DNA from: Escherichia coli | Lineage (GTDB): Bacteria > Pseudomonadota > Gammaproteobacteria > Enterobacterales > Enterobacteriaceae | Assembly (NCBI RefSeq): GCF_003018255.1 | Contig: NZ_CP027440.1 | Strand: one strand, 5' to 3' | DNA length: 64,000 bases | In this document: positions 34,062-37,055 of the stretch, in pieces | Numbering within the stretch: position 1 is the stretch's first letter | How the letters are laid out: the number at the start of each line of letters is the position of its first letter | Program-made: the position numbers and the translations under genes | Notes under the pieces: model-generated | What the model was told of the DNA's origin: nothing | Database searches by the model: none | What the model saw: only the letters and a program-made list of their open reading frames with translations

Positions 34062-36764
34062 TTATTGCTTAGTAAACGGCGCGAAGATTTCGCTAAATGC
34101 GTACTTCGGTGCCTGTTCTTTAGTCAGGCCGTGGAATTCCGGAGACAGGTTAGTGCCGCCTGGCAGGTCGCGCGCGATTGACCAGATACCAACCATACCG
34201 AGATTACGCTTCTGCGCATCCTGCATGACCAGACGAGCATCAGAGAGATAGAACACCTCGCCCTGAACGTCGTTCACGCCAACCATCGGCGTGGTACCCA
34301 TCATAGCGTCAATTTCTGCATCGCTCTTATTGGGATGGAGGCCTTTCAATTGTGAATGCAGGTTGGCAATCGCAGACGTTGCACACTTACCGTGAATGTT
34401 CTGGCCTTCGGTATTTGCAGACTGACAAATCGCGTTACCGTAGTCCATTGTCATCACGTTCACACCCGCCAGCTCAACACCTTTCGCTTTGGCATCGCTC
34501 AGGACATTCATCCCTTCCGGCGTCAGGCCAGTCGGCAGAATTGGCAAGGTGTACCAGATAGCAATATCTTTGCCCTCTGACTTCCATTTATCCTGCACTT
34601 TCTTCACAGCAAGGTTACGACGTTCAATAGATGCCTGATCCGCAACCCAGGTGCCTTCGATATCGAAGTCCAGGACTCTGAGGTTCAGGTTATCAACGAT
34701 GTCATAATAATGCTGCATCAGATCGTCTACGTTCTTACAGGAAGCAGCCAGCGGAGCGTTGTTAGCACCACCGATAGACAGCATCACATCGCCGCCAGCT
34801 TCACGCAGAGCTTTGATTTTGCTGTACTGAGCGTAATTCTGCATACCGTAAGCGGTACCCCATGTCGGCAGACAGGTGTTCGCATCTTTACTCACCACAA
34901 ACGCCAGCGTGAAGTGGTTGACGTTATGATTCTTAGCCAGCGCAGCCAGATCCGGGATCGTATTCAGCGTAAAGTCAACATACGGTGCATAAACGTGTTT
35001 CGGCCACGCTTTCTTCGGCGTACCTACACGTTCTTTGGTTCCGGTCCAGTCAACAAAAACACGCCACGGGTTGCTGTCAGAAGGAGAAACTTTCTGCACT
35101 TTACTCTGAGAAATGTAGTTCGCACCGTTAAAGCGAATCAGCGTATCGCTGGCATAAAGCGTTTCTGGATTAAACTGCGGCGCATTATTCAGCTCTTCGT
35201 TGCTATAGCTCTGAGCCTTACCTAACGGCTTCCACGGGCGGCTATTGCTACCGGTGGCGTTTTGGTTCGCAACCAGAGCAGGGTTGTCGCTTTGCGTCCA
35301 GAACAGCGCTTCATAAGCCTGCCCATCAACAACAACGCGATCACCTTTCACGTACACGGTGGAAGCGGACCATGCTTTCGCCGGTTCGTATTTCTTCCAC
35401 GGGTTATCGCCGCCCGGGACAAAGCCCCATGCGTCTTGATCGACAGAGGTTTTATAATGTGCATCGTTATAATCTACGATGCTGTTCGCGCTGTACGCTT
35501 TGCTGGCCTGGAAACCATCCGCAACAATGACGCCGCCATTATCAATTTCACAGGTAGTTGGGTTACCGTACTGACTCATTTCCGCAGCGGTAGCTGTACG
35601 CACGAGACGCCATGGGTTATTGGAGTTTTCTGCACTAGTGCCACGTGGGCAATCTTCAGAACCAACCCACCAGGCATTCTGATAAACATTACCATTGAAG
35701 ATAACATGGTAAATTTCGCTACCTTCCTGGCCACTCCACGCCTGCAGTGAGTAATCGTTACTGCTATCCGCTGGTGTTGATGGCTCGTTATTATCCGGAG
35801 TAGGAGTAACTGGAGTTACCGGTGTTTCCGGAGTTGGATCAACCGGAGTCACAGCACCGCTATTATTATCCGGCTTAACGGAACAGGAACCCGGATTACC
35901 ATACTGGCTGATTTCTGTTGCCGTTGCCGCGCGAACATAACGCCATGGGTTGCTGGCATCGTTTTCTTTCGCATCGCCTGGGCAATTTGCCGCGCCTACC
36001 CACCAGGCGTTCTTATAAATGCCGCCGTTGTAGATAACGTACCATGTAGAAGAACCTTCCTGACCTTTCCAGGCTACGACAGCATAGTTGTCGTTTGACT
36101 TATCAGCTGGAGCTGGCTGAACATCAGGAGCCGGTTTAACGTCCGGTGCCGGTTTCACATCCGGCGCAGGCTGTGGTGCTGAAGTACAGGACTGTGGATT
36201 ACTGGTTTCTGAGATTTCCGTTGCCGTAGCGGCACGAACATAACGCCATGGGTTGCTGGCATCATTGCCTTTCGCATCACCCGGGCAGTTAGAAGAGGCT
36301 ACCCACCAGGCATTTTTATATACCGCACCATTAAAGACGACATACCAGGTCTGACCGCCCTGCTGTTTATTCCAGGCAACTACAGAAGAATTAGACGGAA
36401 CAGTGCCCTGTGCTGGTGTAGCCGAACCGCCATTAGCCGGCGTATTGGATGCAGGCGTATTTGAATTTGAAGAAGATGAGCTGCCGCTCTTTTCGCAGGA
36501 AAGTGTATTGCCAAACTGACTAATTTCAGCAGCTGTCGCGGTACGCTTTAAACGCCATGGGTTAGTTGCATCATTTGCTTTTGCTTTTCCCGGGCAATTT
36601 GTAGAAGAAACCCACCAGGCATTTTCATAAATTTTGCCATCGAAAATAACCTGATATTTATTACCACCTTGTTGGTTATTCCATACTTCCATTGCCAATG
36701 CTGGCAGAGCGGAACACACCAGCCCCATACCAATCATAGATTTAGTAAATATATTTAATTTCAT
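34062..36764 (-). CDS. chiA: Periplasmic/secreted endochitinase with four N-terminal chitin-binding-type modules
   Basis: ORF track 900 aa; signal peptide; four repeated ~65-aa W/C-rich modules (NAWWV...CPG...NPWR), Pro/Thr linkers, C-terminal catalytic domain. Confidence 0.92.
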   Translation of the reverse strand: MKLNIFTKSMIGMGLVCSALPALAMEVWNNQQGGNKYQVIFDGKIYENAWWVSSTNCPGKAKANDATNPWRLKRTATAAEISQFGNTLSCEKSGSSSSSNSNTPASNTPANGGSATPAQGTVPSNSSVVAWNKQQGGQTWYVVFNGAVYKNAWWVASSNCPGDAKGNDASNPWRYVRAATATEISETSNPQSCTSAPQPAPDVKPAPDVKPAPDVQPAPADKSNDNYAVVAWKGQEGSSTWYVIYNGGIYKNAWWVGAANCPGDAKENDASNPWRYVRAATATEISQYGNPGSCSVKPDNNSGAVTPVDPTPETPVTPVTPTPDNNEPSTPADSSNDYSLQAWSGQEGSEIYHVIFNGNVYQNAWWVGSEDCPRGTSAENSNNPWRLVRTATAAEMSQYGNPTTCEIDNGGVIVADGFQASKAYSANSIVDYNDAHYKTSVDQDAWGFVPGGDNPWKKYEPAKAWSASTVYVKGDRVVVDGQAYEALFWTQSDNPALVANQNATGSNSRPWKPLGKAQSYSNEELNNAPQFNPETLYASDTLIRFNGANYISQSKVQKVSPSDSNPWRVFVDWTGTKERVGTPKKAWPKHVYAPYVDFTLNTIPDLAALAKNHNVNHFTLAFVVSKDANTCLPTWGTAYGMQNYAQYSKIKALREAGGDVMLSIGGANNAPLAASCKNVDDLMQHYYDIVDNLNLRVLDFDIEGTWVADQASIERRNLAVKKVQDKWKSEGKDIAIWYTLPILPTGLTPEGMNVLSDAKAKGVELAGVNVMTMDYGNAICQSANTEGQNIHGKCATSAIANLHSQLKGLHPNKSDAEIDAMMGTTPMVGVNDVQGEVFYLSDARLVMQDAQKRNLGMVGIWSIARDLPGGTNLSPEFHGLTKEQAPKYAFSEIFAPFTKQ
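35549..36689 (-). repeat. Intragenic tandem module repeats in chiA (~310-bp period) plus PAPDVK x3 micro-repeat
   Basis: Near-identical DNA stretches, e.g. gcgaacataacgccatgggttgctggcatc at ~35925 and gcacgaacataacgccatgggttgctggcatc at ~36235; PAPDVKPAPDVKPAPDV encoded at ~36115-36170. Confidence 0.8.
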
Positions 36765-36995
36765 TATAATCCCTTGTGACGTAAAAACTGCAAAACAAAA
36801 GTCCTACGCAGGAATTATTTACGTTTTACGAGAACCCTTCAATATGAATTAAATTACGGCATTAAAAATAAGAAAAAAGCCTGACAAAAGAAGCATTTTA
36901 AAAACAGAAACATTCATATTTAAGATATTAAATTTAATTTATATTTTAAATATGAATAATTTATTCGTTCTGACAGTACGAATAAGATATGCAGT
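36765..36995 (-). promoter_or_regulatory. AT-rich chiA upstream/promoter region
   Basis: About 230 bp of very A+T-rich sequence with A/T tracts between tufA terminator and chiA start. Confidence 0.5.
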
Positions 36996-37005
36996 CAACA
37001 AATGC

Positions 37006-37031
37006 AAAAAGGGCGCCGAAGCGCCCTTTTT
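37006..37031 (-). terminator. Rho-independent terminator after tufA (str operon end)
   Basis: aaaaa-gggcgc-cgaa-gcgccc-ttttt, a perfect symmetric hairpin 25 nt after tufA stop. Confidence 0.85.
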
Positions 37032-37055
37032 AATTCGAAACTAATTAACGTGTAA

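Follow-up and report, generated by a model that had tools for sequence, protein, structure and literature searches.

The chitinase gene chiA of Escherichia coli encodes, behind its signal peptide, a series of repeated modules, and this raises the question of whether such repeats act as substrates for recombination or slippage, so that the number of modules and the length of the linkers between them differ from strain to strain. We have addressed this question for the chiA gene at positions 34,062 to 36,764 of the window, by which we mean the whole 64,000-nucleotide stretch of E. coli contig NZ_CP027440.1 (assembly GCF_003018255.1) that was analysed, and for its counterparts in other E. coli genomes. 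We interpret the region as the N-terminal carbohydrate-binding array of secreted ChiA, made up of four diverged tandem modules joined by low-complexity linkers and subject to rare changes of length driven by misalignment, and we assign this interpretation a probability of about 85%.

The repeated unit is a module of 198 bp (66 amino acids, aa), which recurs along the array with periods of 309, 303 and 333 bp. Each module carries four or five tryptophans and two cysteines, in keeping with the initial annotation, made from the sequence alone, which had recognised four consecutive modules rich in these residues; 25 positions are invariant across the four, including NAWWV, CP, NPWR and the final cysteine. 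The modules (M1 to M4), the linkers between them (L1-2, L2-3 and L3-4) and the short repeats within both are arranged as follows, the tandem arrays having been located with Tandem Repeats Finder (TRF).

34062..36764, minus strand: chiA coding sequence, 900 aa, from the list of open reading frames and annotated as chiA in identical or near-identical E. coli genomes
36693..36764, minus strand: signal peptide, aa 1-24 (MKLNIFTKSMIGMGLVCSALPALA), from the translation, with a putative cleavage site
36495..36692, minus strand: M1, aa 25-90, directly after the signal peptide
36610..36625, minus strand: 16-nt run AAAATGCCTGGTGGGT (encoding ..NAWWV), M1 copy, crossover interval of the M1/M2 fusion
36384..36494, minus strand: L1-2, 37 aa, rich in Ser, Thr, Pro and Asn
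36186..36383, minus strand: M2, aa 128-193
36301..36316, minus strand: 16-nt NAWWV run, M2 copy
36235..36263, minus strand: 29-nt exact run, M2 copy
36081..36185, minus strand: L2-3, 35 aa, which holds the PAPDVK repeat
36117..36170, minus strand: three imperfect 18-bp units encoding PAPDVK, PAPDVK and PAPDVQ (TRF and unit sequences)
35883..36080, minus strand: M3, aa 229-294
35932..35960, minus strand: 29-nt exact run, M3 copy, encoding DASNPWRYV, crossover interval of the M2/M3 fusions
35748..35882, minus strand: L3-4, 45 aa in the window, rich in Thr and Pro
35803..35835, minus strand: 9-bp tandem array within L3-4, 3.7 copies of TPV/TPE units (TRF and alignments)
35550..35747, minus strand: M4, aa 340-405, the chitin-binding domain 4 of the literature (PMC11486038)

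A self dot-plot of positions 35500-36800 contains 40 shared 12-mers, half of them (20) at an offset of 303, while shuffled controls (n = 200) give a mean of 0.015 and a maximum of 1; a repeat search recovers the four copies at spacings of 333, 303 and 309 bp. The initial annotation had foreseen off-diagonal signal at an offset of ~310 bp, and such signal is present far beyond the level of the shuffles, with 303 as its main offset. Its description of near-identical direct repeats of ~310 bp does not hold: what repeats is the module of 198 bp, the identity between modules is 60-72% at the DNA level, with M2 and M3 as the best pair (72% of DNA and 74% of aa positions), and the linkers are unrelated. 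Over the full 303-bp period identity is 57%, and in its linker portion 30%, the random level. Long stretches of high similarity between M2 and M3 had also been noted, and these exist (at offset 303, 80 nt are 85% identical and the longest exact run is 29 nt), but they had been placed out of register; the pair 35911-35990 and 36221-36300 implies an offset of 310, at which identity is 19%. The PAPDVK triple repeat likewise has the three units attributed to it, although any two of these agree at no more than 12-14 of their 18 positions and the third reads PAPDVQ; apart from this K-to-Q codon their differences are synonymous, and TRF reports the repeat at 36120-36164 with a period of 18, 2.5 copies and 81% matches. 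The 9-bp array in the linker between M3 and M4 had gone unmentioned.

Variation in the number of modules was surveyed in RefSeq complete E. coli genomes, the chiA region being found in 3,162 of 5,426. About 99.8% have four modules; the remaining six genomes carry chiA with three, in three distinct alleles.

M1/M2 fusion: 309-bp deletion, protein of 794 aa, in 20KM2222, EC0430, MS 85-1 and 600055
M2/M3 fusion: 303-bp deletion, protein of 796 aa, in ETEC1746
M3/M4 fusion: 324-bp deletion, protein of 789 aa, in B771

When the hybrid modules were scored position by position against both parent modules, every fusion proved to be in frame, with one clean switch that lies inside the longest exact run common to both parents. 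The crossover interval is 16 nt for M1/M2 (AAAATGCCTGGTGGGT), 20-29 nt for M2/M3 (GATGCCAGCAACCCATGGCGTTATGTTCG) and 17 nt for M3/M4 (AAGAACGCCTGGTGGGT). The fusion in ETEC1746 falls in the stretch of M2/M3 similarity to which the initial annotation had pointed, but the commonest module deletion among the complete genomes is M1/M2. Over 5.2 kb, three of the M1/M2 carriers are identical or one single-nucleotide polymorphism (SNP) apart and 600055 differs at 19-20 sites; given these distances, the M1/M2 allele is either old or recurrent.

Further M2/M3 hybrids are found in a collection of 15 billion proteins, on backgrounds resembling the window (P0064), strain LF82 (P0087, P0107 and P0110) and K-12 (P0093). 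A hybrid of Shigella dysenteriae (P0133) occurs on 142 contigs and has a frameshift truncation at 701 aa, and the P0094 hybrid has a different crossover, at NAWWV. Although these three-module variants are present, the collection is without the exact proteins of K-12 (WP_000773156.1), the window and B771, as well as WP_000773136.1, and many of the three-module variants are singleton clusters at 99% identity; its listing is skewed and unsuitable for frequencies, and its many 799-aa entries are not readable as a common allele. Two hybrid modules also contain in-frame micro-duplications, NPWRPWRYV (+3 aa) in P0113 and RAATATATEIS (+2 aa) in P0079, which suggests that micro-slippage occurs within the conserved core as well as in the linkers.

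Gains of a module were not seen. A synthetic query for the M3-to-M2 junction found no five-module allele in the RefSeq complete E. coli genomes; its top two matches, MB53 and B771, were set aside as an insertion sequence (IS)-disrupted gene and the M3/M4 deletion, respectively. No complete genome surveyed has a doubled L2-3 or L3-4. An L1-2 query matched 3,156 places in 3,151 records, a few records being matched twice; the match noted in H457 is of half length and under 'hypothetical protein'.

The linkers vary too. In a census of the PAPDVK repeat, a 191-bp query returned 3,121 records, 46 of them below 95% identity, and these were resolved with synthetic queries of two and four units. Three units are present in ~3,074 genomes (98.5%), two in 29 (a single-piece match of 173 bp) and four in 17 (a match of 209 bp); one genome, that of strain N3, has a 6-bp deletion in this linker. 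In the 2-unit allele precisely unit 2 is missing, from between two copies of AAACCGGC, and the carriers of this allele are mostly genomes of ~5 Mb from dogs, humans or poultry. Two structures occur among the 4-unit alleles, U1-U2-U2-U3 in MB51 and a duplication in another phase in the cq9 type, and this difference indicates at least two independent events. L1-2 is normally 37 aa long and reaches 42 aa in ~25 genomes through a 15-bp insertion, TPASNAPASNTP. L3-4 is 42 aa long (a span of 186 bp) in ~1,907 genomes, K-12 among them, and 45 aa in ~1,166, including the window; in TBU0218 it is 50 aa through an exact 24-bp tandem duplication. The 9-bp array is the site of the 9-bp difference between the window and K-12, and the one extra TPV unit accounts for the difference between their proteins, of 900 and 897 aa.

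The initial annotation had anticipated that module and linker copy numbers may differ between strains, and had named an invariant chiA length as the outcome that would speak against it. Length does vary among the RefSeq complete E. coli genomes, both through the three distinct three-module alleles and through PAPDVK repeats of two, three or four units and L1-2 and L3-4 of differing length. The anticipation needs two adjustments: the most polymorphic linker is L3-4, with its TPV/TPE units, and not the PAPDVK linker, and the variants of the PAPDVK repeat (at most 1.5%) and of module number (~0.2%) are all rare.

As to their condition in general, some copies of chiA in carriers are inactivated; MB53 has two ISVsa5 insertions, NCTC11023 an IS1A-associated loss of the N-terminus, and ES2 and MB51 have frameshifts in the gene.

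We propose that the array arose through tandem duplication of one binding module. Purifying selection on the NAWWV and DASNPWRYV peptides would keep exact runs of 16-29 nt between copies ~300 bp apart, and these short runs would allow an occasional misalignment or unequal crossover with the precise in-frame loss of one period of module plus linker. In the linkers, slipped-strand mispairing would now and then add or remove one of the short imperfect units of 18, 9, 15 and 24 bp. The position of the crossovers in shared exact runs supports the view of the initial annotation that recombination or slippage acts on the repeats; the molecular pathway would be replication slippage or short-homology, largely RecA-independent recombination. 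Deletion between short direct repeats that lie close together proceeds efficiently in E. coli, for the most part without RecA, as Lovett and colleagues are said to have found. Repeat-number polymorphism in bacterial surface and secreted proteins likewise proceeds by in-frame gain or loss of units with endpoints in short shared sequence, whereas the repeats of ChiA are old and diverged (60-72% for the modules; 12-14 of 18 for the linker units), the events are rare and the locus is not hypervariable. Most of the length variants are probably nearly neutral.

Several considerations weigh against this account. The classical minimal length for RecBCD/RecA recombination is close to 29 nt, so the M2/M3 run could have been used by slippage or by a RecA route. 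Where one junction occurs on different haplotypes, it may go back to one old event that was spread by recombination, rather than to recurrence; the candidates for such a single event are the M1/M2 fusion in 600055 as against the other three carriers, and the M2/M3 fusion on its several backgrounds. Only deletions have been seen, with no reciprocal five-module duplications, a pattern in keeping with slippage inside one molecule or with selection that disfavours longer arrays; it leaves unequal sister-chromatid exchange unsupported. The neutrality of the variants, finally, is assumed.

The same variants could be read quite differently, as the output of a contingency (hypervariable) locus at which copy number changes frequently and is selected because it tunes how ChiA binds host glycans, CHI3L1 or mucin, in the manner of surface adhesins that contain repeats. 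The observed indels are indeed all in frame and lie within an array that the literature ties to host binding (PMC11486038); they have several independent origins, in the two 4-unit PAPDVK structures and at least four module crossovers, and some mark lineages, such as the 2-unit repeat with its 29 genomes and the S. dysenteriae M2/M3 fusion with its 142 contigs. We nevertheless consider this reading very unlikely, given the imperfection of the repeats and the standard copy numbers seen in more than 98% of genomes (three PAPDVK units in 98.5%, four modules in ~99.8%). The similarity of 12-14 of 18 between units and 60-72% between modules is the opposite of the perfect repeats that are typical of such loci; the carriers of each allele are essentially identical in sequence, which fits inheritance better than frequent switching; and the truncation by frameshift of the S. 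dysenteriae gene points to decay and not to tuning. Lineage-specific selection acting on module number and linker length so as to adjust avidity or reach for CHI3L1, mucin or chitin also seems to us improbable; if it were at work, the three-module alleles and the 2- and 4-unit alleles would differ in function in ways that matter for gut colonisation and for the virulence of adherent-invasive E. coli (AIEC) and extraintestinal pathogenic E. coli (ExPEC). At the other extreme, the repeats could be a by-product of protein conservation without genetic consequence, and the length variants artefacts of assembly or annotation such as collapsed repeats. Many three-module entries in the protein collection do stem from assemblies of short reads or from Logan, on contigs of ~41 kb, and the odd absence from it of the exact four-module proteins of K-12 and the window marks the skew of its listing. 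We regard an artefact as extremely improbable, since variants occur in many independent RefSeq 'complete genome' assemblies, from different laboratories, hosts and countries, and every junction is in frame and precise, within a shared exact run. The modules share at most 29 identical nt, so few that in our judgement standard assemblers would not collapse them, and the alleles recur, M1/M2 in four genomes, the 2-unit repeat in 29 and the 4-unit repeat in 17.

A further possibility concerns the 29-nt run itself, which might be a recent conversion tract produced by ongoing gene conversion (concerted evolution) between M2 and M3, and not the relic of a duplication preserved by constraint at the level of codons. 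M2 and M3 agree very unevenly along their length, at 57-63% of positions over the first 50 nt and at 90-97% near nt 111-140 of the module; all nine codons of the run match, as compared with 59% of the codons for identical residues over the whole module; and the length of the run differs between strains, being 20 nt in K-12-type alleles. The tract is at the same time the most conserved peptide of the module family (NPWR..R.AT.E), and constraint explains much of its identity. Matching at eight synonymous sites has a chance probability of ~1% by a rough estimate, which is suggestive and not decisive, and synonymous differences stand on both flanks of the run, with no longer tracts seen. On balance we think gene conversion rather unlikely, and return to diverged modules with rare misalignment within conserved runs as the preferred description of the array.

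What these modules are can be approached through their fold and their relatives. Pfam CBM_5_12 (PF02839) gives no match to the four modules at E <= 10 and matches only aa 464-497 of ChiA, and no NCBIfam family was found for them. Structure prediction combined with a fold search places the module in a CBM5/12-like fold class, with a predicted beta core and C-terminal helix. Relative to CBM5/12 (chitin-binding type 3, a relative of CBM73), the ChiA modules add ~20 residues as a helix together with a conserved pair of cysteines, which probably form a C33-C66 disulfide within the module. When 1.84 billion representative proteins were searched with a profile built from the four modules, only 49 were found (clusters at 50% identity), nearly all of which have one module at about residues 25-90, straight after the signal peptide. 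We take the modules to form a narrow family of their own, without a Pfam model.

A counterpart of known structure is the N-terminal domain of the chitinase subunit Chi2 of Yersinia entomophaga. Searched against the PDB, a profile of 38 modules matches residues 24-89 of Chi2 (6ogd_C) with E = 1e-24, and a single protein does so with E = 8.7e-13; on these matches the 66-aa module is clearly homologous to the Chi2 N-terminal domain over its full length. Chi2 (PDB 6ogd, 9c4k and 9cbc), a subunit of the YenTc ABC toxin, likewise carries this domain at the N-terminus of a GH18 chitinase, in a single copy that is without both cysteines, as compared with the four copies with a cysteine pair in E. coli ChiA. 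The domain has a compact mixed alpha/beta fold (PMC12705794), which agrees with the predicted model of the ChiA module, and in YenTc it docks the chitinase onto YenA1 via beta-strand pairing (PMC12705794). In the toxin it is a protein-docking element, a function described for Yersinia only, and not a described glycan binder; because of the homology to it, the ChiA array might bind proteins besides glycans.

In the ChiA homologues of Citrobacter rodentium and Enterobacter there is a single module, which resembles M4, while Superficieibacter and a metagenomic relative have three, which by their identity matrix resemble M1, M2/M3 and M4 of E. coli. These arrangements indicate that the duplication which gave M2 and M3 is the most recent one, and in effect the M2/M3 fusion alleles would undo it. 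One further database entry is probably misplaced: P0011, the UniRef entry CHI11_METAN ('Endochitinase 11', Metarhizium anisopliae), is 87% identical to residues 354-868 of E. coli ChiA and combines K-12-type residues with short blocks resembling frameshift errors, and it is apparently chiA of E. coli entered under a fungal name.

Beyond the array, the gene and its surroundings contain the following features.

35274..35375, minus strand: canonical CBM5/12, aa 464-497, downstream of the four modules (Pfam CBM_5_12; sequence matches to 2d49 and 6z40)
34341..34931, minus strand: GH18 catalytic core, aa 612-808, with the motif LDFDIEG (Pfam Glyco_hydro_18)
36765..37004, minus strand: AT-rich region upstream of chiA, ~34% GC, with one promoter-like site at 36842-36814

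Further CBM5/12-like segments lie between the four-module array and the GH18 domain. The latter matches PF00704 with E = 2.4e-10, above the Pfam cut-off, with its DxDxE motif read as LDFDIEG, and aa 587-898 match GH18 chitinases in the PDB, including 9buf and 2dsk (E = 1.9e-46). Over a stretch of 1301 bp that spans the repeats, the window shows 100% identity to the chiA genes of E. coli strains 104 and GPEC996, annotated as "bifunctional chitinase/lysozyme", and 96.2% to that of K-12. The gene stands between tufA and bfd, and the order in related genomes is fusA-tuf-chiA-bfd-bfr-gspO. By near-identity and synteny we assign the open reading frame as the E. coli orthologue of chiA, encoding a GH18 chitinase/lysozyme; the K-12 protein has chitinase/lysozyme activity and is secreted by the Gsp type II system, according to the summary of Francetic et al. 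(2000) in PMC3950696. Antisense open reading frames within chiA (35262-35750 and others) were dismissed as mirror frames of a coding region of the highly expressed type, with nothing to support them.

The region upstream of chiA contains a 20-nt inverted repeat (36912-36931 and 36938-36957, 90% complementary). Its single promoter-like site is a weak sigma-70-like one, no more than is expected by chance. ChiA (YheB) has been described as an endochitinase whose promoter is repressed by H-NS and activated by BglJ-RcsB (PMC3950696), and the AT-rich upstream region with its inverted repeat is consistent with the reported silencing by H-NS. Directly downstream of tufA, on the minus strand at 37005-37032, lies a strong GC-rich hairpin followed by a run of T (GGGCGC-TTCG-GCGCCC); this is likely the tufA terminator, and appears palindromic enough to act in both directions.

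ChiA has been studied in AIEC, in which the whole protein is described as binding CHI3L1 and mucin (PMC11486038 and PMC6393329), a property that the former source also ascribes to polymorphisms of its chitin-binding domains. For ChiA of AIEC strain LF82, 'chitin-binding domains' 1-7 have been described, and both sources place the substitutions of the 'pathogenic' allele in chitin-binding domain 4 (residues 362, 370, 378 and 388) and in domain 7 (residue 548). The window shares three of the four 'pathogenic' residues of domain 4 (Q362, E370 and V388) and has A378 as in K-12. These papers discuss amino-acid substitutions only; a term search of the two gave no mention of the variation in linker length and module number described here, and a full-text literature search for such variation gave no E. 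coli paper.

ChiA and its binding domains are thus already described, and the length polymorphism is a minor addition to what has been reported; the feature is real but ordinary, and reveals no new system or mechanism. It nonetheless concerns a studied colonisation factor of AIEC, in the very part of the protein that is implicated in host binding. A variable number of domains (three or four) and three linkers of variable length bear on allele typing and on the design of PCR assays and amplicons, and affect the interpretation of studies of ChiA polymorphism that score substitutions only. The chiA array also offers a clean natural case of in-frame deletions between diverged tandem repeats, with ends that lie in the longest nucleotide runs the repeats share.

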